A DNA stretch of 14,274 nucleotides from Archangiaceae bacterium (GTDB taxonomy: Bacteria; Myxococcota; Myxococcia; Myxococcales; Myxococcaceae). Both the position numbers and the translations under genes were made by a program. Position 1 is the first letter of the stretch. Every line of letters starts with the position of its first letter. Shown here piece by piece: positions 1,032 to 14,274 of this stretch. A model generated the notes under the pieces. It was not told where the DNA came from. It ran no database searches and worked only from the letters and a program-made list of their open reading frames with translations. The stretch is from the NCBI GenBank assembly GCA_043750125.1, contig JAYVCD010000345.1, positions 1-14,274 on the forward strand, given 5' to 3'.

Positions 1032-1167
1032 TTTGTCCTCTGCGTTTGCTTGAGCCCCTTGGACACCTACCGCCGCCTGAGTGGGACATCGGGCCCAACA
1101 AAATGCACAACCCCTGTCGGCGGACACTGTAAATCGCGACTCCTTGCGCGACATCGCTGCTCTCACG

Positions 1168-1308
1168 ACCAAACGCTTCCACAACCGCGCGACCGCGATC
1201 GAGATGGCGGAGGTAAAGCGCATGGAAAAGAAGACGGGCCTTCCGGTCTTCCTCACCGGCGACATGAACGAGACCACCGAGACCGACCAGAAGGTAACGG
1301 CCGGAACC
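1168..1308 (+). pseudogene. Internal fragment of endonuclease/exonuclease/phosphatase (EEP) family gene
   Basis: TKRFHNRATAIEMAEVKRMEKKTGLPVFLTGDMNE contains the EEP 'PxxxxGDxN' motif with high GC3. There is no credible start and the frame stops at 1318-1320. Confidence 0.6.
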
Positions 1309-1362
1309 GCTGCAGATTGAGGGGCCGGTGCCCTTGTCCAGCGAGCCGTAGGTCTGCACCTG

Positions 1363-1503
1363 GTTCGGGTGCTGGAAGGCGAGGCGATCTTTGCCGAACC
1401 GACGGGGGCCGCGGTGCGCAAGTGGCATTGGAAGCCCGCGACGCAGGGGGGCAAAGCCATCGCCGTCTACGAGGTGATTCGGGTCCCCTTCCGGCTTCAG
1501 TAA
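1363..1503 (+). pseudogene. C-terminal fragment of TonB-family energy transducer
   Basis: Manual translation VRVLEGEAIFAEPTGAAVRKWHWKPATQGGKAIAVYEVIRVPFRLQ* fits the TonB_C pattern 'AVxxWxxxPA..xG..V.....V.F.L'. An in-frame stop at 1318-1320 removes the N-terminal portion. Not in the ORF track. Confidence 0.7.
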
Positions 1504-1583
1504 CCGAAATGCGCACCTCGCGCTGAATGTCCGTGCCTCGCGCTGGCCCTGAGGGGAAACGAGAGCGAGGGGCGGAAAACAAA

Positions 1584-2179
1584 ATGAACGGATGGATGGA
1601 AGACCGGGTGTGCCTGATCACCGACGGCTGCTCGATGGACGGAAGACAGCTCGCCGTCTCGCTGGCGAGAATGGACGCGACGGTGGTGATCGTCGGCCCC
1701 GAAGGCAGCTGAAGTCGACCGAGCCGCTGCGCATCGTCAACGTCACCGCGGGCCGGCACGCCGATGCGCTCGAGCTGGACACCGTCAATGGTCCCCAACT
1801 CAGCTCCAGTCGCGCGTACGCGGCGGCGAAGTTGATGAACGTACTGTTTACCTACGAGCTGGCGCGCCGCACCGCGGGAACGAACGTGACCTGCAATTGC
1901 GTCCACCCCGCGGCGGGAATGTTTGCGACCGCTGCGACCGCTGCGGCCCGAGCCGTCGGCCCGCTGTTCCTCGCCACGTCCACGATGCTCGAGGACGTAA
2001 GCGGCAAATACTTCGTCGGAATGAAAGAAGCGAAGTCCGCCGACGTGTCCTACGACTCTGCGCTCGCCGGCAACCTGTGGAAGCTGAGCACCCAACTGGT
2101 CGGCCCGAACGCAGCCGCTCAGCCCACCCCTTCGATCACCCGCTCGCGGTTCCTCGCCAGAAATCCCGCGTTCAGCTGA
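1584..2179 (+). pseudogene. Short-chain dehydrogenase/reductase (retinol-DH-like) pseudogene
   Basis: The N-part MEDRVCLITDGCSMDG...DATVVIVG (degenerate TGxxxGxG) ends at 1712. The C-part is in another frame: RIVNVT...YAAAK (YxxxK)...LFTYELARR...NCVHP...VSGKYF...LWKLS. The central Rossmann segment is missing and there is a frameshift near 1710. Confidence 0.75.
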
Positions 2180-3696
2180 GCGAACGGCCGGGACACCGCG
2201 AAGGCCAGCGCGGCGAGCACCGCCATACCCGGAAGCAGCAGCGGCCGGGCGAAGTTGAACAGCGCCCACCAGGCGGAACCGAAGAGCGCTCCGCTGACCA
2301 GCGTGGTGGCGAGGCTGATCAACACCACCGGCAACGGAATCTGAGAGTTCTTCATGCTGGTGCGCTGCATTCGCCGCGGAAGCCAGATGCTGGTGCGCTG
2401 CCCGACCACGCCCTGGGCGAAAAAATAGCAGACGAAGAGCATCATTCCCGCGACCAGCTCATCGAGCTTCGGCTTCTGAATCAACAGCAACAGCCCGGTC
2501 AACAGCAGCGCCTGCAGGGCCTGCCAGGCCGCGAAGCCGAGCTGTTTTCCCTCGAGGATCGCGCGCTCGGAGATCGGCAACAGGAACAGCGCTTTCACCC
2601 CGTGCCCGTCGAGGCCGAACTGGTTGAAGCCCAGGCCGTTGGCGGCCAGCGAGATGTAGACGAACGCTCCGGGAATCAGCCACCGACCGGTGCCCGCCAT
2701 TTCACTGAACGGCCCGCGAATCAGAACCAGCGTCACCAGCGGCATCGCGAAGGCGAACTTTCCGAGGTGACTTCCCAGCAGCGTCTCGAGCTGAAGTCGC
2801 CCGACGCTGAGCACCGGGCTCGAGTGGCTCCACAGCTTCTGCGGCAGGCCGCTGCTGCCGACCACCGCCGAGTCGCGCTCGCGCAAGAGGACGAAGTAGC
2901 AGACGAGCAACACCCCGGCCGAGAGCAGCAACCCGCTCAGCAACCCCTGGAACTCGCCCAGGTGGGCGGCGCGAATCGCCTGCGAGGCCGGGAGGTAGGA
3001 CGCGAGCTCGACGACGTGTTCTCCGAATTTCCGCAACCCGGCGGCTCCTCCCCGCCCGCCCAGGGACGAGGGGCGGCTGGCGCGGGCGGCGATCACCTGG
3101 CTGAACACGAACGCCAGCCCGACGGTGGCCGCCAGCGCGCCCCGCATTCGCTTCACCAGCCGTTCGGCAAAGCTGCCCACCAACAGCTGCACGCACAACA
3201 GCAACAGCACCGACTGCAGCATCAGCAAGAACATCACCGGCGCCATCCGCGGCGCGGCGGCTGCGGTGGCGGCGCAGATTCCGAACAGCGCGGTGGCTTG
3301 AATCAGGGTGATCGCATCGCCCAGGCCGGCGAGGACTTCGGCGGAAAACAGCGTCATCGGGCTCAACGGATAGCCCCGGTACTGTTCCCACTCGAGCTGC
3401 TTGGCGCCGCCGGCGACGCCACCGACGATGCCGCCTCCGACTGAGACGGCGGTCAAGATGAGGCCGATGACGCTGCCCAGCTCGGGGCTTCCCTCGGGCG
3501 AGAAGGCCGAGCGGGCGACGAAGTAGGCGCCAATCGAAAAGCCGAAGACGATCGGAATCACTACGCTGACCGAGATCAGCAGGACGGCGATGGTCAACAG
3601 CACCACTCCGTTGGCTCCCAGCTGACGCACGAGCCGGTTCGACGAGGCCTGGAGGTGAGCGACGAGCACTCCGCGCAGCGGCGAAGTCAGAGCCAC
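2119..3696 (-). CDS. ABC transporter permease (multi-TM, ABC-2/export type), 525 aa
   Basis: Many hydrophobic helices. GTG at 3696 is preceded by AAGGAG and overlaps the 3' end of the upstream ATPase gene. Confidence 0.85.
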   Translation of the reverse strand: MALTSPLRGVLVAHLQASSNRLVRQLGANGVVLLTIAVLLISVSVVIPIVFGFSIGAYFVARSAFSPEGSPELGSVIGLILTAVSVGGGIVGGVAGGAKQLEWEQYRGYPLSPMTLFSAEVLAGLGDAITLIQATALFGICAATAAAAPRMAPVMFLLMLQSVLLLLCVQLLVGSFAERLVKRMRGALAATVGLAFVFSQVIAARASRPSSLGGRGGAAGLRKFGEHVVELASYLPASQAIRAAHLGEFQGLLSGLLLSAGVLLVCYFVLLRERDSAVVGSSGLPQKLWSHSSPVLSVGRLQLETLLGSHLGKFAFAMPLVTLVLIRGPFSEMAGTGRWLIPGAFVYISLAANGLGFNQFGLDGHGVKALFLLPISERAILEGKQLGFAAWQALQALLLTGLLLLIQKPKLDELVAGMMLFVCYFFAQGVVGQRTSIWLPRRMQRTSMKNSQIPLPVVLISLATTLVSGALFGSAWWALFNFARPLLLPGMAVLAALAFAVSRPFAQLNAGFLARNRERVIEGVG

Positions 3697-4430
3697 GACA
3701 GCTCTCCTTTTCGGCCGCCGCCCACCAGGCCGACGAAGTGCGACTCGAGGCTTTCTCCCGAGGCCTTGAGCTCGTCGAGCGCCCCGAACCCCTTCAGCTT
3801 TCCTTCGTCGATGATCGCGATCAACGGGCACAGCTTCTCGACCACCTCGAGGATGTGGCTGGTCAGCACCACCGTCACTGCGCGCTTCTGGAGCGAGAGC
3901 AGAATTTCCTTGATGGTGCGATTGGTCACCGCGTCGATGCCCTCGAACGGCTCGTCGAGGAACAACAGCCGGGGGCCGTGGATCAGCGCGGCGGACAGCG
4001 CGAGCTTCTTCTTCATTCCGAAGCTGTACTCGGAGATCAGCGCCTTCGCGGCGGGCTTCAAGTCGAGAATTTCGAACAGCTCGGCCGCGCGCGCATCGAT
4101 CGACTTGTCGTCCAGCCCGTACATCCGGCCGACGAAGCGCAGGTACTGGGGGCCGCGGAGCATCTCGAGCAGCGCCATGTCTTCGGGCATCACCCCCAGC
4201 TGGCGTTTGACTTCCAGCGGGTGCTCTTCGATCGAGAGGCCGAGCACCCGAATGCTGCCCGAGGTGGGCCGCAACAGCCCGGTCAACATCTTCAAGGTCG
4301 TCGATTTTCCCGCCCCGTTGCGGCCCAACAACCCGAGGAAGGAGCCAGGCTCGAGGGTGAGGCTCAGGTCATCGACCGCGACTTTGTCGCCGAAACGCTT
4401 GGTGACGTGAATCAGCTCGAGGGCGCTCAT
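3687..4430 (-). CDS. ABC transporter ATP-binding protein (ABC-2 type), 247 aa
   Basis: Walker A GRNGAGKST, signature YSFGMKKK, Walker B LFLDE, H-loop TSH. Start reassigned to MSALEL at 4430. Confidence 0.95.
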   Translation of the reverse strand: MSALELIHVTKRFGDKVAVDDLSLTLEPGSFLGLLGRNGAGKSTTLKMLTGLLRPTSGSIRVLGLSIEEHPLEVKRQLGVMPEDMALLEMLRGPQYLRFVGRMYGLDDKSIDARAAELFEILDLKPAAKALISEYSFGMKKKLALSAALIHGPRLLFLDEPFEGIDAVTNRTIKEILLSLQKRAVTVVLTSHILEVVEKLCPLIAIIDEGKLKGFGALDELKASGESLESHFVGLVGGGRKGELSWL

Positions 4431-4574
4431 GCTTTGCGCAGGTACATAGAGCCTGCGCGAATCGACACACCAGAAAATCAGAACATCCGCACCCCAACGT
4501 CGCTCTTGGGGCTGCGCTCGAATCGACGCCGGAAGGACGGAGCGGGGAGGCGTCCGTACCTCCCGGGCGGCTTG

Positions 4575-4587
4575 CAACGTCTTGATT
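4575..4587 (-). promoter_or_regulatory. Putative IHF binding site
   Basis: The reverse strand reads AATCAAGACGTTG, a perfect match to WATCAANNNNTTR. It lies 18-30 bp upstream of the sigma54 GG, in a locally AT-rich patch. Confidence 0.6.
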
Positions 4588-4602
4588 TTTCGAGCCCGAA
4601 GG

Positions 4603-4619
4603 CCGGCGCGGCGTTTGCT
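4603..4619 (+). promoter_or_regulatory. Putative sigma54 (-24/-12) promoter for the DUF1592 operon
   Basis: CCGGCGCGGCGTTTGCT versus consensus YTGGCACGNNNNTTGCW. GG (4605-06) and GC (4617-18) are separated by exactly 10 nt, and the site lies 13 nt before ATG 4632. Confidence 0.7.
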
Positions 4620-4631
4620 CAAGGGCTTCCC

Positions 4632-6305
4632 ATGTTCCGACGCCAGAACCTGTGCTGGTTGACCGCGGTCCTCTGGCTGGGGTGCGAGGGGCAGATCGAC
4701 GCACCCCTTCCGCGAGTCGCCGTCCCCACCGCCCACGCGGACGACGAGGTGCTGCGGACGCAGGACGAGAAGCTGTTCGACCTCGCGACACGGTATTTCC
4801 CCGGCCAGGATCCAAGTCCGGGTTCGACGCGCTTGTCCCGTCTGACCCGCCCGCAGCTCGACGCCACCACCCGCGCGTTGCTGCCGATGCAGTACGGGGC
4901 GTCGGCGGTGGCCGCGCTGCCGCGAGATCCGCTGCAGAAGAATTACGAGTACGCGGCCAACCTCGGCTTTACGCCGGTGAACTTCACTCCGTACCTGAAG
5001 TGGGTCGAGCCGAAGGTCGAGGGCGTCCGCGCGAATCCGGGTGGGGTGATTGCCTGCGCCGCGGGTAATTCTGCCTGCCTCGATACGGAAGCGCGGAAGT
5101 TCGTTGCCCGGGCCTTTCGCGGCGTGGTCACCGAGGCCAGGCTTGCGACGTTTGCCGCTTTTTATCTGGCGAACACCGCGCAGCTCGGGGTCGCGGACGC
5201 CACGGCCGACCTCGTCGACGTGACGCTTCATTCACCGGGCTACGTGTTTCGCGAAGAGATCCAGGTCGACGCGGCGGGCTTGCTCGCGCCCGCGCAGCAG
5301 CTGCAGAACCTGACGTACGTGCTCGCGGATGCTCCGCCCGAGGCGCTCGCGATGTCGTCGGCGACGCCTCAGCTGTACCTGCAGACCCCCGAAGAGCTCG
5401 CGAAGACCGTCGACCGGATCCTCGCGACGCCCGAGGCGCGGGCGAAGCTGCTCGGCTTCTTCGTCGCGTGGCTGGAGATCAAGGCGGCCGACGAGCTCAC
5501 GCTGAGCCCGAGCACCTACCCCTCGTTCACTCCGGCGGTCGCCGCCGCGGCCCTGGAAGAGACGCAGCGTTTTCTCGAGTTTTACCTGGGCAAGCCGAGC
5601 CCGAAGTTGAAGGACCTGACGCAATCCACCCAGTCGTTCGTCTCGCAGCCGCTGGCGGCGATCTACCAGCTGACGCAGACCCCATTGAACGGCGCGACGT
5701 TGATCGATCTCGACCCGGCGACGCGGCTGGGCCTCTTCACCCAGCCGGCGGTGATCGCTTCTCACTCCGGGCCGACGAGCACCCGGTTGGTCAAGCGCGG
5801 CGTCTTCTTCACCCGCAAGGTGATGTGCCTGCCGCTCGGCGCGGTGCCCAGCGATGTCAACACCATGCTCCCGGTGACCAACGGTCAGACCGAACGGGAA
5901 CGGATCGAACCGCCGACCCAGGCCGCGAAGTGCGCGGGCTGTCATTCGTTCATCAACCCGTTCGGGTTCGTGCAGGAGAACTACGACGCCGACGGGAAGT
6001 GGCGCACCACCGACAACGGGGTGGCGATCAACGCGGCGATCTCGGTGTCGTTTCTCGACGAAGGGAAGCTCGAGACCCAATCTCCGGTGACTGCGCTGAA
6101 GGCGTTCACCAGCTCGGCGCGGTTCAAGCAGTGCTTCGTGCGGCAGCTGTTTCGCTTTTACATGGGCCGAGACGAAGAGCCCGGCGACGACCCGCTGCTG
6201 CGCAAGATGTTCTTCGGCTTCGCGCGCAACGACGAGCAGGACCTGATCGGCCTGCTGCGCATGCTCGCTACGTCTTCTCACTTCTCACAGCGGGTGGCCC
6301 GATGA
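4632..6305 (+). CDS. DUF1592/DUF1595/DUF1588/DUF1585-domain lipoprotein with CxxCH motif, 557 aa
   Basis: Signal peptide with LWLG|C lipobox. Motifs RLTRPQL, ARAFR, LHSPGYVFREE, LTYVLADAPP, RLGLFTQPA...VKRGVF...MC, CAGCH (5931-5945)...NPFGFVQENYDADGKWR and CFVRQLFRFYMGR are recognised from this myxobacterial/planctomycete family. Start reassigned within ORF 3738..6305. Confidence 0.88.
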   Translation: MFRRQNLCWLTAVLWLGCEGQIDAPLPRVAVPTAHADDEVLRTQDEKLFDLATRYFPGQDPSPGSTRLSRLTRPQLDATTRALLPMQYGASAVAALPRDPLQKNYEYAANLGFTPVNFTPYLKWVEPKVEGVRANPGGVIACAAGNSACLDTEARKFVARAFRGVVTEARLATFAAFYLANTAQLGVADATADLVDVTLHSPGYVFREEIQVDAAGLLAPAQQLQNLTYVLADAPPEALAMSSATPQLYLQTPEELAKTVDRILATPEARAKLLGFFVAWLEIKAADELTLSPSTYPSFTPAVAAAALEETQRFLEFYLGKPSPKLKDLTQSTQSFVSQPLAAIYQLTQTPLNGATLIDLDPATRLGLFTQPAVIASHSGPTSTRLVKRGVFFTRKVMCLPLGAVPSDVNTMLPVTNGQTERERIEPPTQAAKCAGCHSFINPFGFVQENYDADGKWRTTDNGVAINAAISVSFLDEGKLETQSPVTALKAFTSSARFKQCFVRQLFRFYMGRDEEPGDDPLLRKMFFGFARNDEQDLIGLLRMLATSSHFSQRVAR

Positions 6306-7735
6306 CTCCTTTCACCCGCCGAGATCTGATCAAGCGGTTCGGAATGCTGGCGTTCGTGCTCACCCCGGTCGTCCGCGCGATGGGCGCGTATGCGACGGCC
6401 CCGTTCAGCTCGGCGCCGCGGTTCGTGATGTTCTTCAAGGGCGGCTCGTACCATTCGCCCTCGGTGAACCCGGCGTCGATTGCGAATCTCGCCGGCACCC
6501 CGCTGGCTCCTCTGCAGCCGCACGCCAACGACCTCATCTTGTTCAAGGGAATGAGCATTCACGGCGGCTCGCCGAAGTCGAACGGCTACCAGGAAGAGCA
6601 CGGCGCGGGCCTGCTCGGGTGCGTGACCGGCAACAGCTACAAGTACACCCAGAACGACTCGTATTACGCCTACACCGACTTCGAATCGATCGACGTGAAG
6701 ATCGCCAATCACTACAAGGCGAACGTTCCGGCGCTGGCGAACTTGCCGTTCTCGAGCCTGCACATCGGAGCCGGGGCTCATTCCGACGCCGACAATGTCG
6801 GGCTCGGCCAACGCTACATCTCGTTTCGCAACCGCCAGGCAGGCGACTCGACCTACGGCAACGCCATCTCGCCGATTCAAGACGCGGGGCAGGTCTACGA
6901 CACGCTGATCCAACGCATCAACCTGTTGTGCTCGACCCAATCGAACCAGCCGAACACCGACAACGCGAAGCTGCGCGCGGCGCTGCTGCACAAGAAGAGC
7001 CTGCTCGACTTCAAGCTCGACGACCTGAAGACCGCGAAGAACGTGCTCGGGCTGGACTCAGAGCATTCGCGCAAGCTCGACGGCCTGGTCGATGGCTGGC
7101 GCGAGGTCGAGGCGGTCAACAACGCGCAGTTGCTCGCGGCGTCCGACGGCGGCACTCCGGGGTCGATCACGGCCGCCTGTCCGACGGGGATCCGGCCGAC
7201 GGGCAACGGGACCAACAAGCAGAACCTGGATCAGCTCTCGGTGGTGCACGATCAGATGATCAGCCTGATCAAGCTGGCCTTCGAATGGGACCTCACCCGG
7301 GTGATCGCGTTCACCCTGTCCGGCGCGTCGTGCGGACAATCGATTCCCAGCCGCGGCGTCTCACAGGCCCACCACACGCTCGAGCACAGCGCCAACGTCG
7401 CGGGGCAGAACACCATCGACACCTACTACTCGGAAAAGTTCGCGCTGCTGCTGACCGCGCTGAAGGGCATCGACGACGGGGGCGGGAAGACGGCGCTCAA
7501 CAACAGCTCGGTCGTGCTCGGAATGGAATGCTGGAGCAACAGTTCGAGCGGCCACTTCCTCACCAACATTCCGTTCGTGCTTGCCGGCCAGGGCGGGGGC
7601 AGGTTCCAGACCGGCCGCATCGTCAACGCCGCGGGGCGCAACAACAATGACCTGCTCGTCTCGGTTCAAAACGCGGCGGGGATCGCCTCGAACACGTTCG
7701 GGCTTCCCAGCCTCTGCGCGGGGCCGATTGTCTGA
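6302..7735 (+). CDS. DUF1552 domain protein with twin-arginine signal, 477 aa
   Basis: ATGA overlap with the upstream gene and N-terminal TRRDLIK. Family-like motifs PRFVMFF, LAPLQP, SIDVKIA, KSLLD, KLDG, LAFEWDLTRV, HHTLEH, IPFVLAG and NDLLVSV. This is the usual partner of DUF1592. Confidence 0.88.
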   Translation: MTPFTRRDLIKRFGMLAFVLTPVVRAMGAYATAPFSSAPRFVMFFKGGSYHSPSVNPASIANLAGTPLAPLQPHANDLILFKGMSIHGGSPKSNGYQEEHGAGLLGCVTGNSYKYTQNDSYYAYTDFESIDVKIANHYKANVPALANLPFSSLHIGAGAHSDADNVGLGQRYISFRNRQAGDSTYGNAISPIQDAGQVYDTLIQRINLLCSTQSNQPNTDNAKLRAALLHKKSLLDFKLDDLKTAKNVLGLDSEHSRKLDGLVDGWREVEAVNNAQLLAASDGGTPGSITAACPTGIRPTGNGTNKQNLDQLSVVHDQMISLIKLAFEWDLTRVIAFTLSGASCGQSIPSRGVSQAHHTLEHSANVAGQNTIDTYYSEKFALLLTALKGIDDGGGKTALNNSSVVLGMECWSNSSSGHFLTNIPFVLAGQGGGRFQTGRIVNAAGRNNNDLLVSVQNAAGIASNTFGLPSLCAGPIV

Positions 7736-7782
7736 AAGCGCGACTGAACTCACCGGCCCGAACGTGCTAACCCGGTCGCTGG

Positions 7783-9075
7783 ATGTCGTTGGGCACGGTC
7801 GGTAAATACACGCTGCTCGAACGATTGGGCGAAGGGGGCATGGGCGAGGTCTATCGCGCCGCCACCGAGGGCCATTCGGGGTTCCGGCGCGAGCTGGCGA
7901 TCAAGCAGATGCGGCGGCGGCTCACCGGCGACGTGCGCCTGACCGAGCTCTTTCTCGCCGAGGCCCGGTCGCTGGCCGAGCTGCGGCACCGGAACATCGT
8001 GCAGGTGTTCGAGTTCGATGTCGCGAACGGCCGCCCGTACCTGGTGATGGAGCTGCTGCACGGGGTCAGCCTCGCTCCCTTCATCAAGCGCGTTCCGCTG
8101 CCGGTCGAGGGGGTGTGCTTCGTGGGGGCCGAGCTCTCAGACGCGCTCGCGGCGGTGCACAAGACGGGGCGCGCGGGCGGGCAGGGGGGAATGGTGCACG
8201 GAGACCTGTCGCCCTCGAACGTGATGGCCTGCGTCGACGGTGCGGTGAAGCTGCTCGACTTCGGGCTCGCCACCCACGAGCAGGCCGCCGGTGGGACTGG
8301 GCCCCAGGCGGGGAAGCTGCCCTACCTCGCGCCCGAAGTGCTGGCCGGGTCGCGGTGCGATGCGCTGACCGATGTGTATGCGGTGGGGGTCACGCTGTAC
8401 GAGCTGCTGATGGGCGAGCGGCTGTTTGCCTCGAGTCTTCCACCCGAAGAAGTCGCGGCCCGCATCGCGCGCGCGGATTATACGAAGCTGCGTGCCGACC
8501 TTCCGGCTGAAGTCCGGGCGGTGGTCGAGAGGTGTCTGTCGCGCGAGCGCGCGCATCGTCCAAGCGCGGCCCAGCTCGCGAAGGCGCTGCACGGATGTCA
8601 GGCCGCGTTCGGAGCGACCGAGCTCGCGCGCTTCGTTCGACAGGCGCAAGGCGGCCCGTCCGCCCTCGAGCCGACCGGCACCGTCTCTCGCGCTGCGGTT
8701 GTGGCCGTTCATGGGGAAGGACCCCTGACCGCGTCTGCGCTTCCGTTGGCCGCCATGCCCAGGGTTCGACGCAGTGGACTCAGGTGGGGGCTCGGACTGG
8801 TGGCCGTGATGGCCTTCGTTGCGATTGCGATCTCCCTGCGCCCTTCGCCTCCGGCGGTTGTGGTCGCAGTGCCCGTCGAGGCGCCGCCGATCGAGCCCGC
8901 CCGGCTCGAAGCGCCGCCGCCACTGCCGGTTGTTCCGTTGCCTGAGCCCGCTCCGATTGTCGCGAAGAAGAAGAGGAGGGCGACCGTTCCGGCGAAGGCC
9001 CCGAAGGCAGTGAAAGCGGCGCCGCCTCCACCCGACCGATTGGCGCCCGGCTTCATCGCCGACCCGAAGAGCTGA
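7783..9075 (+). CDS. Hanks-type Ser/Thr protein kinase with single TM helix and Pro-rich C-terminal tail
   Basis: LGEGGMGEVY, LAIK, HGDLSPSN, DFGL, YLAPE, DVYAVG. TM segment WGLGLVAVMAFVAIAISL. Confidence 0.95.
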   Translation: MSLGTVGKYTLLERLGEGGMGEVYRAATEGHSGFRRELAIKQMRRRLTGDVRLTELFLAEARSLAELRHRNIVQVFEFDVANGRPYLVMELLHGVSLAPFIKRVPLPVEGVCFVGAELSDALAAVHKTGRAGGQGGMVHGDLSPSNVMACVDGAVKLLDFGLATHEQAAGGTGPQAGKLPYLAPEVLAGSRCDALTDVYAVGVTLYELLMGERLFASSLPPEEVAARIARADYTKLRADLPAEVRAVVERCLSRERAHRPSAAQLAKALHGCQAAFGATELARFVRQAQGGPSALEPTGTVSRAAVVAVHGEGPLTASALPLAAMPRVRRSGLRWGLGLVAVMAFVAIAISLRPSPPAVVVAVPVEAPPIEPARLEAPPPLPVVPLPEPAPIVAKKKRRATVPAKAPKAVKAAPPPPDRLAPGFIADPKS

Positions 9076-9121
9076 CGGCAGGCACCGAGGTGATGGACCG
9101 AGCCCGAACCTCTGTGTTGTC

Positions 9122-10078
9122 GTGCCGGCCGTGTTCACCGCTCTCACTGGCAACGAAGCGGGAAGCCCCGGGTGGCGCGCGCTGTTCGCAATCGTCCTTG
9201 GCCTGGCCGGCTGCGGCGGGGGGGATCTCGAGATCCTCGTTCGCTCCGACGTGGGCCCGGTCGACTTCGTCAGCGCGGCGGTCTTCGGCCCGTCCGGGGT
9301 GCTGACCCGCTCCGACCGGCTGCCTGCAACCGGGGCCGCAAATCTGCCCAGCCGCTTGACCCTCGAACGCCCGGGGCGCAGCGCCCAGACGCTGACGTTG
9401 ATGCTCTGGGGCCGGCGCGGCGCAGCGACCGTCGGCTTCGCGGACCTCGTTCTTCCCAGCACGCCGACTCCGGGGCTGGAGGTCACCCTGGTCGCACCGC
9501 CGCCCGACGCCGATTCCGATGGAGTGCCCGATCGTCTCGACCGCTGCCACTTTCTGCCCGACCCGGACCAGCTCGACAGCGATGGCGACGGAAGCGGCGA
9601 CGTCTGCGGCTGCAGAGAAAACAGGTTTGCGGTGCCAACCTTCACCACGACCGCGGACTTCAGCCCGTGGATAGATCGCCAGAGCTCCACGCTCACCCTG
9701 GTCGACGGGCCCAATGGGACGAAGCGAATGAGGGTGTGCCGGACCGCGGCGGGCTCGCAGTTTGGGACCACCGCCAGCGTCCCGCTTCCGGCCGGCGCGC
9801 AGGAATTGGAATTGAGCGCGGTGGTGCTCTCGGCCAGCGGAACGGGCACGGCCGCTCCGTTGGCGCGGCAGGGGGCGAGCTGCAACTCGTGGGACGGCAG
9901 CTGTCATGGAGGGACGGTCATCGGGCCGGTGGATTTGTCGGCCACCCCCGCGACGCTCAGCACCCGGTTGAAGCCCAGCGGCACCGGCTCACTCGAGCTC
10001 GAGCTGACCTCGTTCGACCTTCCGCTTTCCACCTGCTTCGACGTGCAGCAGGTCTGCCTGGTGGTGACCAAGCCATGA
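9122..10078 (+). CDS. Lipoprotein with thrombospondin type-3 (Ca-binding) repeat and C-terminal beta-rich domain
   Basis: Lipobox LAG|C. TSP3 motif DADSDGVPDRLDRC...DPDQLDSDGDGSGDVC at about 9506-9608. Exact start uncertain (GTG 9122 or 9131). Confidence 0.8.
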   Translation: MPAVFTALTGNEAGSPGWRALFAIVLGLAGCGGGDLEILVRSDVGPVDFVSAAVFGPSGVLTRSDRLPATGAANLPSRLTLERPGRSAQTLTLMLWGRRGAATVGFADLVLPSTPTPGLEVTLVAPPPDADSDGVPDRLDRCHFLPDPDQLDSDGDGSGDVCGCRENRFAVPTFTTTADFSPWIDRQSSTLTLVDGPNGTKRMRVCRTAAGSQFGTTASVPLPAGAQELELSAVVLSASGTGTAAPLARQGASCNSWDGSCHGGTVIGPVDLSATPATLSTRLKPSGTGSLELELTSFDLPLSTCFDVQQVCLVVTKP

Positions 10079-10596
10079 TTCCCGCGCTGGTCCTGGTGAC
10101 GTTGCTCTCAGGTTCGCCTTCCGAGCAGCTGTTTCAGAAGGGCAAGGCGGCGTTCGGCGCCGGCAATCTGACCGAGGCACTCGAGGCCTTCACCCAGGCA
10201 CGGAGTCTCGACAAGGCGCCCGAGCTGTTGCTGAACATCGCGCAGTGCAACCGCGGTCTGGGGCGGCGGGCCGAGGCGATCGCGGCGCTCGAGGCGTTTC
10301 TGGCGCAGGCCCCGCGCCACCCGCTGCGGAAAGCGGCCGAAGGAACGCTGGCGGATCTTCGCGCCGAGCAGACCGCGTCCGACGTGCCCACCCGAGTCGA
10401 GCTCGCCCCTGTGCCGGCTGCGCCCGCCCCGCTTCTGCTTGCGCCTGTGGAGCAACCTCCGCGCCGGGTCTGGCCCTGGGTCGTCGGCTCGGTCGCAGCG
10501 GCCGCCGTCGCTGGCGCGGTCGTGGTGGGGGTGGTTTGGGCGAGCAGCTCCAGCCATTCGGATCTCGGCACCGTGCACGTGCCGCCGCCGCAGTAG
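10075..10596 (+). CDS. Exported TPR-repeat protein with C-terminal TM anchor, 173 aa
   Basis: ATGA overlap with the previous gene and signal MIPALVLVTLLSG. TPR-like helices (LFQKGKAAF...EALEAF; LLLNIAQCNRGLGRRAEAIAALEAFL). 'RRVWPWVVG' precedes a TM helix. Confidence 0.85.
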   Translation: MIPALVLVTLLSGSPSEQLFQKGKAAFGAGNLTEALEAFTQARSLDKAPELLLNIAQCNRGLGRRAEAIAALEAFLAQAPRHPLRKAAEGTLADLRAEQTASDVPTRVELAPVPAAPAPLLLAPVEQPPRRVWPWVVGSVAAAAVAGAVVVGVVWASSSSHSDLGTVHVPPPQ

Positions 10597-10601
10597 CTGG
10601 G

Positions 10602-11924
10602 TTAGAGCAGCCCGCGTTTCTTCAGCAGGCGCTTGAGCTGCATCCGCTCGATTCCTGACAGCCGTGAGGCCAGCTTGATGTTGCCTTCGGATTTCTTGAG
10701 CAGGTCGGCGAGGAACTCGCGCTCGAAGTGGTCGACGACCTGCTCCTTCTGTTCCTGAAAGCTGGTGGTCGGATCTCGCTTCAGCGAGGGAGCAGGAAGA
10801 TCGAACGACAGCTCGAGCCGGGCGAAAGGCCGCGGAGCTCCGGCCAGGGTGAGCGCGCGGCGCAACACGTTCTCGAGCTCGCGCACGTTGCCGGGCCAGC
10901 CGTGGGTGCGAAGGCGCGCCAGACCATCGCCCTCGATCGGCCCGGGCTCTTTGACCCCCAGCTTCACCAGCAACGAGCCGATCAGCCCCTGCAGGTCTTC
11001 GCCGCGCGCGCGCAGCGGGGGCAGATCCACCGTCACCACGTTCAGCCGGTAGAAGAGGTCTTCCCGGAACGCGCCGCGGGCCACGAGGCCGGGGAGCTCT
11101 TCACGCGTCGCCGCGATCACCCGCACGTCGACCTCGATCGGCGTGCCGGTACCCAGCGGAGTGATCTCTTTGCGATCCAGAAACCGCAGCAGCAACGGCT
11201 GGAGTTCGAGCGGAAGGCTCGCCACTTCGTCGATGAAGAGCGTGCCGTGGTGGGCCAGCTCGAGCGCTCCCTTTCGGGCGGCGACGGCTCCGGTGAAGGC
11301 GCCAGCGCCGTGACCGAACAAGGCGGCGTGGAGCAGGCTCGGAGTAATCGCGCTGCAGTCGACGACCACGAACGCGTTCTTCCCCCGAGCGCTGGCCGCA
11401 TGAAGGGATCGCGCCGCGAGCTCTTTTCCGGTGCCGGTGGGACCCTGGAGCAGCACCGTCGAGTCCGTGGCCGCAGCGCGTTCGAGGGCGGTGAACACCT
11501 GGCGCATCAATCGGCTCTGGCCTTCGAGCGTGCCGAAGCGGGTGTTTCGGCTCGGAGCCAGCCCCGAGCTGCGTTCGGTCGCCACCAGCTGCAGCCAGGA
11601 ATCTCCGACGCGGATCAACGCTCCGGGAGGAAGGGCAATCTCTGAGACGCGCGAGCCTTCGAACCAGGTGCCGTTGCGGCTGCCGAGATCTTTGATCAGC
11701 ACTGCGTCTGAGCCCGCTTGAAGCTGCACGTGCCGACGCGAGACGCGGGGATCCGTCAATCGCAGCGCCGCCTCGCTCGAAGATCCCACCAGCGCCGGCT
11801 CGGGACCCAGCTCGATGCTGGTTCCCCGCTCGGGCCCCTCGACCACGCGCAGCCGGCAGCGCCCGAGACTGCCGCCCTGCTGCGGAGCCGTCTGGGTGTG
11901 CGGCGGGGTTCCGTCTTGCTTCAT
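10602..11924 (-). CDS. FHA-domain sigma54-dependent transcriptional activator (FHA-AAA+-Fis HTH)
   Basis: FHA motifs VSRRH and DLGSRNGT. Walker A GPTGTGKE, GAFTGA, Walker B LFIDEV, FREDLFYRL, WPGNVREL, and a C-terminal HTH. Confidence 0.95.
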   Translation of the reverse strand: MKQDGTPPHTQTAPQQGGSLGRCRLRVVEGPERGTSIELGPEPALVGSSSEAALRLTDPRVSRRHVQLQAGSDAVLIKDLGSRNGTWFEGSRVSEIALPPGALIRVGDSWLQLVATERSSGLAPSRNTRFGTLEGQSRLMRQVFTALERAAATDSTVLLQGPTGTGKELAARSLHAASARGKNAFVVVDCSAITPSLLHAALFGHGAGAFTGAVAARKGALELAHHGTLFIDEVASLPLELQPLLLRFLDRKEITPLGTGTPIEVDVRVIAATREELPGLVARGAFREDLFYRLNVVTVDLPPLRARGEDLQGLIGSLLVKLGVKEPGPIEGDGLARLRTHGWPGNVRELENVLRRALTLAGAPRPFARLELSFDLPAPSLKRDPTTSFQEQKEQVVDHFEREFLADLLKKSEGNIKLASRLSGIERMQLKRLLKKRGLL

Positions 11925-11933
11925 TTCGGTGTC

Positions 11934-12416
11934 TTACTTTTTACCCTTCGCCTTCTGCTTCGGCTGGTTCAGCTTCTTGTCCATCTCGGCGGCCTCGTTC
12001 ACTTCCGGGTCGGCGGCGGTCTTCCCGTTCTTCTCGATCACGATTTCTTTTTTCCCCGCCGGCTTCGGCGCGCTCGCTTCTTTCGCGGCGGCGGCGTCCT
12101 TCGCGTCGAGCGCCTTGGCGGCCGCGTCGGTGCTGGCCTTGTCTTCGCGGCCGAGCTTCGAGCCCGAGCGCGCAAAGTCTTTGGGGTCGACGCCCGCCTT
12201 TTCGAGCACCTCGCGCTCAGCGCCCGCTTTTTCCTTCATCATCGATTTGCGCTCTTCGGCCGACAGCTCGGACGGCTTCTTGTTGCCGTACTTCTTGTCG
12301 ACCGCGTCCGACGCTTTTTGCTGATCGTGCGCCAGCGCGGCTCTCTTCTCGGGGGTCAGGTCTTCGGCGTGCGCGAGCAGCGCGGTGAGCATTGAAGCCA
12401 GGAGCAAAGGGCGCAT
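11934..12416 (-). CDS. Secreted Lys/Ala/Glu-rich hypothetical protein, 160 aa
   Basis: ATG at 12416 follows GGAGGA. Signal peptide MRPLLLASMLTALLAHA|ED and strong codon bias. It ends 9 bp upstream of the activator start, so the two are likely co-transcribed. Confidence 0.85.
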   Translation of the reverse strand: MRPLLLASMLTALLAHAEDLTPEKRAALAHDQQKASDAVDKKYGNKKPSELSAEERKSMMKEKAGAEREVLEKAGVDPKDFARSGSKLGREDKASTDAAAKALDAKDAAAAKEASAPKPAGKKEIVIEKNGKTAADPEVNEAAEMDKKLNQPKQKAKGKK

Positions 12417-13165: not shown

Positions 13166-13317
13166 ATCACCCGGCCCACAGCAGCTTTCCCTCGCGCCTC
13201 ACTGACGGATACGTCGCTGCGTCGGCGACCGGTATGTAGATTCTTGCTTCGTTCTCCGCGTCTTCCCGAAGAGCTCGAGCGGATTGGTCACCGGACCCAG
13301 AAGGAAGGTGACTTCCG

Positions 13318-14148
13318 TTACCGAGGTGGCGTCAGGTACATCAAGAGAGAGCTTCCTGCGTTCACCATCATCGTTCTGCTGCCGATAACCAATGGCACGA
13401 GTCCCGGCACAGAGCTGGTCACGTAGAGGGCCACAAGCACCCCGTCCCCGAGAGGCTCGATTGCGGAAGCTGCGAACCCCGCGGGCGAAGAAGTTCCGCC
13501 AGCAAGGCAGTGCATCCACAACAAGTCTCCAGTCGTCGCGTCATGAACGGCCAGCACTGCATTGCCATTATTTGTTGCTGGTGGACAAACAACCTCGATC
13601 CCATTCTGATTAGTATACCGCGTCGAGTTATTTGGCTGAATGCCTTGCTGAAAGGCACCAAGAAGTTTGTTTGATGACCACGCGCGCAGCTCAAGCACTT
13701 TTATGGTCCGGAAAGGGTCGCCTGATGGTCCGTTTTCCGTGGTCGTGAGCGAGCTCCACGCCTCTGTGAGGCCATCATTTCGGCGAGACATTGCGAGGGA
13801 AGGATTCGGCGAATTAAGTGAACCCTGTGCGTAGTAAACAGGGGCGCGAGTGGCAGGAAAGAAAAAGTTCCCCAGCCGTTGGTTGGGACCGTTGACGTCT
13901 ACAAGTCTGACACAACCGCCATCTTCAGTCAGTTCAGCCAGGAATGACTGTATTGGGTAGCTCGGCACCCCTGAACAATCGGGAAAGCCCAGGCCGCCAT
14001 CGGAAAACCGATATGCTTGCGTTAAAAAAGTTTCGCGTCCGGTAGGGTAAAAACCTGCCCCCGCGTTTGCAACGAAACTATTCCGCACCAAATTGAAATC
14101 ATCTGAAAATGACACCACGCGATGGCTGTCTGGCAAGAACCCAACCAC
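13318..14148 (-). CDS. Hypothetical beta-rich protein, lower GC, probably 5'-truncated
   Basis: 276-codon open frame in AT-richer DNA with a propeller-like 'AVHDATTGDLLW' motif. There is no SD or signal peptide at the GTG, and the frame stays open upstream until it enters the putative IS end. Confidence 0.6.
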   Translation of the reverse strand: MVGFLPDSHRVVSFSDDFNLVRNSFVANAGAGFYPTGRETFLTQAYRFSDGGLGFPDCSGVPSYPIQSFLAELTEDGGCVRLVDVNGPNQRLGNFFFPATRAPVYYAQGSLNSPNPSLAMSRRNDGLTEAWSSLTTTENGPSGDPFRTIKVLELRAWSSNKLLGAFQQGIQPNNSTRYTNQNGIEVVCPPATNNGNAVLAVHDATTGDLLWMHCLAGGTSSPAGFAASAIEPLGDGVLVALYVTSSVPGLVPLVIGSRTMMVNAGSSLLMYLTPPR

Positions 14149-14166
14149 TGCTTTCTCGGAGAGCTT

Positions 14167-14274
14167 GGTCAGATTCCAGGGGTCGGGATCTCATCCTGAG
14201 CGGAGTCGTTGTGCGGGTGTGACCATCTGAGGCAAGAGGGTCGCGGGAGGAGCCCGCGATGCCGAAGAGGAAGA
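14167..14274 (+). mobile_element. Possible left end of an insertion sequence with start of a transposase-like ORF (MPKRK..., 14259 to window end)
   Basis: Composition shifts back to GC-rich near GGTCAGATTCCAGGGG. A GGAGG SD and the A of the ATG lie within a hairpin (14241-14259), the upstream ORF looks interrupted, and the window ends here. Family not identified. Confidence 0.4.

Follow-up and report, generated by a model that had tools for sequence, protein, structure and literature searches.

The stretch of DNA analysed here (the window, 14,274 nucleotides) is the entire contig C345 of an Archangiaceae bacterium, whose genome (G000) comprises 6.17 Mb with 65% GC and is 89% complete. It carries a DUF1592-DUF1552 gene pair preceded by a predicted sigma-54 promoter, followed by genes for a serine/threonine kinase, a lipoprotein and a TPR protein and, convergent with these, a gene for a sigma-54 activator with an FHA domain. 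An earlier note had read this arrangement as a self-contained circuit, in which kinase and activator switch on the DUF pair in response to a cue from outside the cytoplasm. Pfam matches and coordinates confirmed the six genes and their domains at the places given there. The features are as follows.

4460-11930, no strand: accessory cassette, limits approximate, from gap comparison with congeners
4458-4527, plus strand: candidate enhancer repeats recognized by sequence, CGAATCGAC at 4458 and 4519 and CAACGTC at 4495 (second copy at 4575)
4575-4587, minus strand: exact match to the integration host factor (IHF) consensus, 30 nt upstream of the -24 GG
4603-4619, plus strand: predicted sigma-54 -24/-12 promoter CCGGCGCGGCGTTTGCT, by consensus match and position, GG at 4605-4606 and GC at 4617-4618
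4632-6305, plus strand: DUF1587/1595/1592/1588/1585 protein by Pfam domains (DUF1592-type, PSCyt3 group III lipoprotein)
5931-5945, plus strand: heme-c motif CxxCH (CAGCH, residues 434-438), invariant in 75 of 75 aligned rows
6302-7735, plus strand: DUF1552 (HXXSHH) protein with twin-arginine signal, by Pfam domain and signal prediction
7764-7773, plus strand: extended -10-like element GTGCTAACCC before the kinase ATG, at a genome-wide peak position
7783-9075, plus strand: Hanks-type serine/threonine kinase (PF00069, E 1e-38) with one transmembrane helix (332-350)
9122-10078, plus strand: lipoprotein with TSP3-like calcium-binding repeats and a C-terminal domain resembling carbohydrate-binding module (CBM) families 4/9
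10075-10596, plus strand: exported TPR protein with a hydrophobic C-terminal helix (136-154)
10602-11924, minus strand: FHA-AAA+-HTH sigma-54 activator (PF00158, E 8e-60; PF02954)

The DUF1592 and DUF1552 genes overlap by 4 nt, as do those of the lipoprotein and the TPR protein. The convergent activator gene lies 5 nt past the TPR stop codon; 9 nt separate its start from the stop of an upstream open reading frame (ORF) at 11934, from which it may be read through. Mismatch-free Logan contigs, from runs X3/X4 as well as X1, span the ABC-promoter-DUF1592, DUF1552-kinase and lipoprotein-TPR-activator junctions; the junction of the activator with the 11934 ORF is spanned, among the listed pieces, by X1 only, which may be the window's source.

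The 7.5-kb block is accessory, because in the congeners G001, G002 and G004 a single SH3-domain gene occupies the same site between the ABC ATPase gene and the 11934 ORF. A homologue of this SH3 gene with 65% identity is found elsewhere in G000. Third-position GC of the cassette genes is 0.82-0.89, with a genome median of 0.83. By genome-wide profile counts, G000 has about 41 sigma-54 activators (18 with FHA), about 101 kinases and 17 DUF1552 matches over the Pfam cut-off, and adjacency alone is therefore little proof of a functional connection.

A near-leaderless sigma-54 promoter

The promoter matches 11 of the 13 specified positions of the consensus yTGGCACGrnnnTTGCw (as in PMC12754779) and has a position weight matrix score of 12.0 out of about 15; the strict pattern has 20 matches across the genome. 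Its GG lies 27 nt before the ATG of the DUF1592 gene, and with canonical spacing transcription would start near 4630, leaving a leader of about 2 nt. Among 3024 operon-leading genes of G000, defined with their starts by our own simple gene caller, GG-N9-TGC occurs 38 times at -27, 16 times at -28 and 12 times at -29, against 2-12 times at the other scorable offsets (-60 to -30 and -26 to -14), and wrong-spacing controls at -27 gave counts of 11 and 1. Since its GG sits at this genome-wide positional peak, we place the DUF1592 promoter in the class that the peak defines. A mis-called start can hide such a promoter, as in an example from G064, and other promoter negatives may share this fault.

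In the 66 genes of the class (-27 to -29), positions that were not selected for rebuild the consensus, with C after the GG in 44 and A or T after the GC in 50. Shine-Dalgarno sequences are scarce (5/66 versus 764/3024), 55 of the genes start with ATG, and 39/66 encode exported products, compared with 1024/3024 overall. Across the genome, the start codons of some 45-66 genes are preceded by a sigma-54 promoter at a distance of 27-29 nt.

The earlier note had proposed looking for enrichment of sigma-54 motifs upstream of homologues, and this was found: in G000 the motif precedes 7 of 18 DUF1592 leaders versus 72 of 3007 others (p 1.6e-7). In two complete genomes (G008 and G012; 40 regions, covering 43 of 45 DUF1588 hits) it stands before 12 of 36 operon-leading DUF1592 genes, with 0/36 and 2/36 at control offsets and 20/227 before neighbouring genes (p 2e-4). 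Where DUF1552 comes first in these two genomes, the motif sits on DUF1552 in two of three loci. This conservation of position in paralogues and orthologues supports sigma-54 control of the DUF1592-DUF1552 operon, as the note had claimed, with a near-leaderless mRNA to be expected; such an operon therefore needs an enhancer-binding protein.

The IHF site, also part of the original claim, is rare: its pattern has 24 matches genome-wide, and 4 of the 3024 leaders contain one. The CAA half of the site recurs in four orthologous loci, and CAA at -30/-31 from the GG is found in 10 of the 66 class promoters, where about 0.8 per position is expected; the element could be an activator half-site instead. 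As for the upstream repeats, AACGTCGCG occurs twice before a sigma-54 promoter beside a related activator (L174), and AACGTC is not enriched across the promoter class (2/66 versus 60/2958).

That the motif is a non-working sigma-54 promoter and the six genes a chance assembly seems to us highly improbable. The promoter is predicted from sequence alone, high-GC DNA is rich in GG-N10-GC matches and a simple caller supplied the starts, all of which would suit such an explanation, but it is opposed by the sharpness of the positional peak with its spacing controls, by the replication in two complete genomes, by an exact IHF site at the expected distance and by the RpoN-box and HU/IHF-like genes that, judged by motif, are present in the genome.

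The DUF1592 cytochrome and the DUF1552 protein

The pair agrees with the definition of PSCyt3 group III plus DUF1552, i.e. a PSCyt3 protein with PSD4, and often PSD2/3/5, whose gene adjoins a DUF1552 gene. The DUF1592 protein has a lipobox, LWLGC18 (identified by eye), and one CxxCH motif, as do all 75 aligned DUF1592 rows; the motif is absent from all 95 DUF1552 rows. The ‘exported heme-protein pair’ of the earlier note is thus to be reduced to one heme protein and its partner. Exported and with a CxxCH motif, the DUF1592 protein is a predicted heme-binding c-type cytochrome, though one whose family alignment contains no family-wide distal methionine or histidine. Two proteins with a WGxxWxWD motif presumably provide for cytochrome c maturation in this genome. 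The structure model (pLDDT 95.8) found no match among solved folds (best Foldseek E 0.47, best VIA Z 5.0); it was searched whole (511 aa), so that a single-domain match could escape.

For the DUF1552 protein (model pLDDT 89.8), all 50 matches listed belong to the alkaline phosphatase/sulfatase superfamily, the best with a VIA-align Z-score of 17.5 (rmsd 3.3 over 249 aligned residues; Foldseek E 9e-5), and we assign the modelled core to this fold. ENPP7 (5udy), choline sulfatase (7pth) and PafA (5too) share its core α/β fold at Z-scores of 15.6-17.5 and 9-13% identity. Sequence searches of the PDB with both DUF alignments gave nothing credible; a match to MnSOD (E 0.02) was treated as chance.

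His100, His362 and His418 are invariant in 95 of 95 DUF1552 sequences, His358 is found in 94 and Glu/Asp409 in 93. In a register drawn by eye against PafA-like sequences, His100 takes the place of the Ser/Thr/Cys(FGly) nucleophile, 9 residues before TG, Lys46 falls at the first-strand Asp, His358-x3-His362 at D-x3-H, His418 at the last metal His and Glu409 at the strand-end Asp; unlike members of the superfamily, DUF1552 would lack the Asp of the first strand and the His that follows the second Asp, and it has an obligate cytochrome partner. Two things count against this active-site assignment, namely its dependence on comparison by eye and a profile alignment with PafA-like phosphatases (hhalign), which reached a probability of 1.2% and covered the last His only.

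If the register is right, the histidine in place of the nucleophile would yield a metal site rich in histidine and apt for redox or for non-covalent chemistry. Such a site, the obligate cytochrome partner and the redox partners found in Hyphomicrobiaceae (see below) suggest a heme-coupled redox metalloenzyme; a non-covalent hydrolase or a binding protein are the alternatives.

The signalling module

The kinase is of the non-RD type (HGD139-141), has K41, E60, DFG and APE intact, and conforms to the Hanks type. Its exterior consists of a proline-rich stalk with no folded outer domain, ending in a tail motif, L[AS]PG[FY][IL]A[DE]P, that is common to five homologues. In the extended -10-like element, TGCTA lies 18 nt before the kinase ATG, where TGnTA peaks genome-wide (-15 to -21), and TAnnnT occurs at -14 to -19 before three homologous kinases, so a separate sigma-70-family start for the signalling genes is likely. 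Basal expression of the kinase therefore need not rely on read-through from the DUF operon, which the earlier note had suggested as a source of feedback; read-through is possible, with no terminator called in the gap at 7735-7783, but it is not required. A sigma-70 scan of the same gap returned 0 sites. A GG-N9-GC before the kinase was rejected as a sigma-54 promoter for its wrong spacing. In G000 as a whole, TAnnnT/TGnTA forms a peak of its own at -12 to -21, suggesting many leaderless sigma-70-type genes.

The second gene of the module had been described as coding for a TSP3 lipoprotein. The lipobox (LGLAGC31) and, after an N-terminal domain, TSP3-like repeats are present, the latter with an E-value of 6e-4, below the Pfam cut-off, but the larger, C-terminal domain appears to be CBM4/9-like: two of seven homologues pass the threshold for PF02018, the window protein itself has no hit, an atlas match of 0.88 serves as a lead only, and xylanase Y matches with an E-value of 0.01. 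These similarities hint at a glycan as the cue.

By its motifs, the activator is a sigma-54 enhancer-binding protein: Walker A, GAFTGA, Walker B, R-finger and C-terminal HTH are all present, with ESELFGH reading HAALFGH. In its FHA domain, S62-H65 (SxxH, here SRxH) and N84-G85 (NG) are kept and G47-S48 replaces GR. It thus departs from the canonical phosphothreonine-binding pattern of GR, SxxH and NG, which PMC3162421 describes as crucial for binding, and the phosphothreonine step that the earlier note had placed here becomes doubtful. The arginine is likewise absent from all eight aligned activators, and 12 of the 14 parsable FHA activators of G000 lack it (GR is kept in two).

This invites an alternative: the neighbouring activator would still control the operon, with FHA as a degenerate contact or autoinhibitory domain, but the kinase would not signal through that domain and the kinase trio would act elsewhere. 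The lost arginine would be in keeping with it, as would a lipoprotein-TPR-activator arrangement in G002 with no kinase upstream. Yet SRxH and NG are retained, an Arg-less chlamydial FHA protein is still phosphorylated by its kinase (also in PMC3162421), and kinase genes are overrepresented around the FHA activators of G000 (8/101 versus 130/5682 genes) and present in most homologous loci. On this evidence, we consider the alternative improbable.

A search of 208 family genomes identified the signalling lipoprotein in six. The order kinase-lipoprotein-TPR with a convergent activator recurs in G027:C102, G072 and G065 (in the last with the kinase tail at the contig edge), whereas G027:C197 has the order shuffled, G002 lacks the upstream kinase and no TPR gene was seen in G064. 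As judged from gene order, the quartet is a separately conserved, movable module with swappable cargo. It occurs without the DUF pair, and no second complete copy of all six genes was seen; the circuit is thus neither a fixed six-gene unit nor conserved as the self-contained whole that had been proposed. A metagenome scan with the activator C-terminus gave, among the matches listed, only paralogues at 29-39% identity and was set aside.

FHA activators beside DUF1592 genes

Of the 136 DUF1588 hits in five family genomes, 20 lie no more than 6 kb from an FHA activator, where uniform placement predicts 4.3 (activators at E < 1e-62, from 150 scored candidates; 11 of the 20 come from one genome). 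For control exported genes (FG-GAP, sulfatase) the count is 0 of 48 (p 0.002). In a tree of 35 activators, the 15 that are linked to DUF genes require 10 changes of state, at least seven of them forced by strong branches, so the link must have arisen or been lost many times. An activator in G064 with 65% identity to that of the window flanks a DUF pair only 26-28% identical to the window's, with the same type of promoter at -28, and a relative in G027 (48%) flanks a beta-helix lipoprotein with this promoter type at -27. We conclude that the link between FHA activators and DUF1592 genes is recurrent and above chance. At another locus of G000 (L151, contig C300), the gene immediately before a DUF1592 operon with a near-leaderless sigma-54 promoter encodes a 331-aa activator that has no FHA domain.

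Orthologues of the DUF pair

The subfamily to which the DUF pair belongs comprises 67 loci at 51-79% identity, in Myxococcota, in Hyphomicrobiaceae, where the gene order is reversed, and in Bdellovibrionales (67 of 68 loci were kept, L120 being left out for its 49 aligned residues; many of the contigs are short). Most of them adjoin genes of two other kinds: ECF (extracytoplasmic function) sigma factors (11 loci), FecR-TPR proteins (10) and GH114 (15, in three phyla), or, in Hyphomicrobiaceae, an Fe-S flavoprotein (13, one doubtful) and a membrane triheme cytochrome (12).

Around the reversed Hyphomicrobiaceae pair, the triheme gene flanks either side (L067, L068, L076, L078, L091, L096, L103, L105, L109, L114, L118, L119), and in all but one of these 12 loci it has a 4Fe-4S flavoprotein gene as its partner; a small PAN-domain gene is next in five loci of the group. 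In nine Polyangia-like loci (L059, L066, L080, L084, L086, L088, L092, L098, L108), a conserved block of genes for GH114, an ECF sigma factor, FecR-TPR and an uncharacterized membrane protein lies directly upstream. Matches to DUF1592 or DUF1552 run over two frames in L055, L077, L091 and L104, through a frameshift or sequencing error.

Of the synteny expected by the earlier note, the recurrence of FHA activators beside DUF1592 genes held; among the orthologous loci it is limited to L055-L057, L059 and one congener contig. In L055-L057 an FHA activator of a different clade (42%) and a kinase are adjacent, in L059 an activator is located about 6 kb away (by eye), and the congener contig carries a rearranged remnant. 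In that contig (G003:C468, 776-2722), residues 1-332 of the activator are joined in frame, with a 7-bp overlap, to residues 157-477 of DUF1552, and behind them lies a TPR gene remnant in reverse orientation; we rejected a functional fusion and take it to be a rearranged remnant or an assembly chimera. The near-leaderless motif was found in 2 of the 56 orthologous loci whose upstream DNA was long enough for scoring (L055 and L057) and not in the other 54; L056 has it at -31 by eye. L055, L056 and L057 are the loci with an adjacent activator.

A proposed portable module and its cargo

We propose that a portable signalling module has been placed beside a typical cargo and that the local activator switches on the DUF operon, a reading whose chances of being right or wrong we judge to be about equal; of its parts, control of the operon by the neighbouring activator is likely. 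The lipoprotein, with its CBM4/9-like domain, would sense a ligand outside the cell, most probably a glycan, while the TPR protein would hold the conserved outer tail of the kinase. The kinase would then switch on the activator encoded beside it, perhaps through a non-canonical contact or by phosphorylating it, and the activator would open the sigma-54 promoter at a distance of 6 kb. For the kinase genes, a sigma-70-type start of their own would provide basal expression, leaving the loop open, and others of the roughly 41 activators of the genome may also act on the promoter. The output would be a periplasmic two-subunit enzyme, consisting of a monoheme cytochrome lipoprotein and a Tat-exported (twin-arginine translocation) phosphatase-fold protein.

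A number of observations weigh against this proposal. By hand tally, the promoter accompanies 5 of 9 DUF operons with a local FHA activator and 16 of 52 without (p 0.25), so that the promoter is not tied to a local activator across paralogues. At 8 kb the contrast with the control genes weakens (2/48 versus 22/136, p 0.044). In G000, proximity to near-leaderless sigma-54 genes is at the level of random genes for FHA activators (4/18 versus 249/1500) and above it for the other activators (10/23). For five further activator relatives (50-55%), no DUF pair is adjacent and a range of about 9 kb contains no credible sigma-54 cargo, and the activators of G027:C102 and G002 also lack such cargo. L055-L057 are close kin and amount to a single case. 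In L053, 14 kb of sequence contain no activator, and a sigma-54-like site lies about 70 nt upstream. No GH114 gene was found in the 89% of G000 that is available.

Some of these observations fit a real sigma-54 promoter that is driven in trans by an unlinked activator of many DUF1592 paralogues, with the quartet an island neighbour that has other targets. The 16 operons that carry the promoter without a local FHA activator, the persistence of the quartet and its relatives without cargo and the occurrence of the CAA element across unrelated promoters of the class are what one would expect in this case. They have to be set against the enrichment of FHA activators beside DUF genes over the uniform null and both exported-gene controls, the single activator clade that adjoins two unrelated DUF paralogues, each with a promoter, and the congener contig that DUF1552, the TPR remnant and the activator share. 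Control in trans is possible, but we regard it as somewhat unlikely.

Extending the local reading to the family, the DUF1592-DUF1552 pairs (17-44 per family genome) might be unrecognized periplasmic glycan-acting enzymes, in which a phosphatase/sulfatase scaffold has exchanged its nucleophile for a four-His metal site that is wired to a monoheme cytochrome of a new fold. Each paralogue would be switched by an interchangeable surface-sensing module: CBM-lipoprotein, TPR protein, kinase and FHA activator through a leaderless sigma-54 promoter in Myxococcaceae, ECF/FecR-TPR beside GH114 in Polyangia. We put this forward tentatively and, taken as a whole, consider it unlikely.

Flanking genes

Upstream of the cassette, the minus strand (2119-4430) codes for an ABC ATPase and a 525-aa membrane protein without Pfam match, both kept in four congeners; the ABC ATPase side and the sigma-54 promoter share a 200-nt intergenic region. 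Pieces of a short-chain dehydrogenase, probably a broken gene, are spread over several short frames at 1144-2179 (plus strand). Downstream, the 11934 ORF (11934-12416, minus strand) encodes an exported protein rich in Lys and Ala that has no Pfam match and is 67-75% conserved in congeners, and is followed by a phytochelatin-synthase-family protein (PF05023; 12473-13165, plus strand) with an N-terminal hydrophobic segment, found at the same site in congeners. In the last part of the window (13200-14274), GC falls to about 54%, and a 276-aa ORF (13318-14148, minus strand) has no Pfam match.

Relation to known systems

FHA-domain sigma-54 enhancer-binding proteins of Myxococcus xanthus were reportedly described by Jelsbak, Givskov and Kaiser in 2005; they are said to have the same FHA-AAA+-HTH architecture and to have been proposed to couple serine/threonine kinases to sigma-54. 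The window activator differs in travelling with a CBM-like lipoprotein, a TPR protein and a tailed kinase, in its FHA domain without the GR arginine, and in the concrete cargo family that recurs beside it.

PexR-dependent promoters of M. xanthus, PkatB and PahpC, are validated -24/-12 promoters that a neighbouring enhancer-binding protein activates (PMC12754779). The likeness to the window lies in the combination of such a promoter, here predicted, with a neighbouring activator in Myxococcota; PexR has a GAF sensor, as opposed to the kinase and FHA domain. The leaderless mRNA that this paper mentions belongs to a sigma-A promoter, not a sigma-54 one.

The pair itself is known from Verrucomicrobia and Planctomycetes, where, in the sections of He et al. 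2017 (PMC5615132) accessible to us, the gene for the same PSD3-PSD5-PSD4-PSCyt3-PSD2 protein (PSCyt3 group III) adjoins that for DUF1552, with function unknown and a carbohydrate role suggested from context; a table row of PMC2754498 also contains it. Those sections of PMC5615132 give no promoter, regulator or fold. To them, the window adds a lipoprotein paired with a Tat protein under near-leaderless sigma-54 control, and a subfamily that spans Myxococcota, Hyphomicrobiaceae and Bdellovibrionales. In the literature searched, from which subscription journals are largely missing, we found no paper that describes the module, the promoter class or the DUF1552 fold, none on a His nucleophile in the alkaline phosphatase superfamily, and none that assigns a function or regulator to the pair, abundant as it is in myxobacteria and in bacteria of the Planctomycetes-Verrucomicrobia-Chlamydiae group.

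What is new is a variant of known regulatory parts, together with testable predictions for an orphan gene pair. The locus and its relatives offer a promoter, so far predicted, a candidate for its activator, glycans as a candidate class of cue (GH114 substrates being a first guess) and four His residues, and thereby a first handle on the regulation and possible role of the common DUF1592/DUF1552 pair. They also provide test cases for how serine/threonine kinases reach FHA sigma-54 activators that lack the phosphothreonine-binding arginine, and for whether sigma-54 makes leaderless mRNAs.

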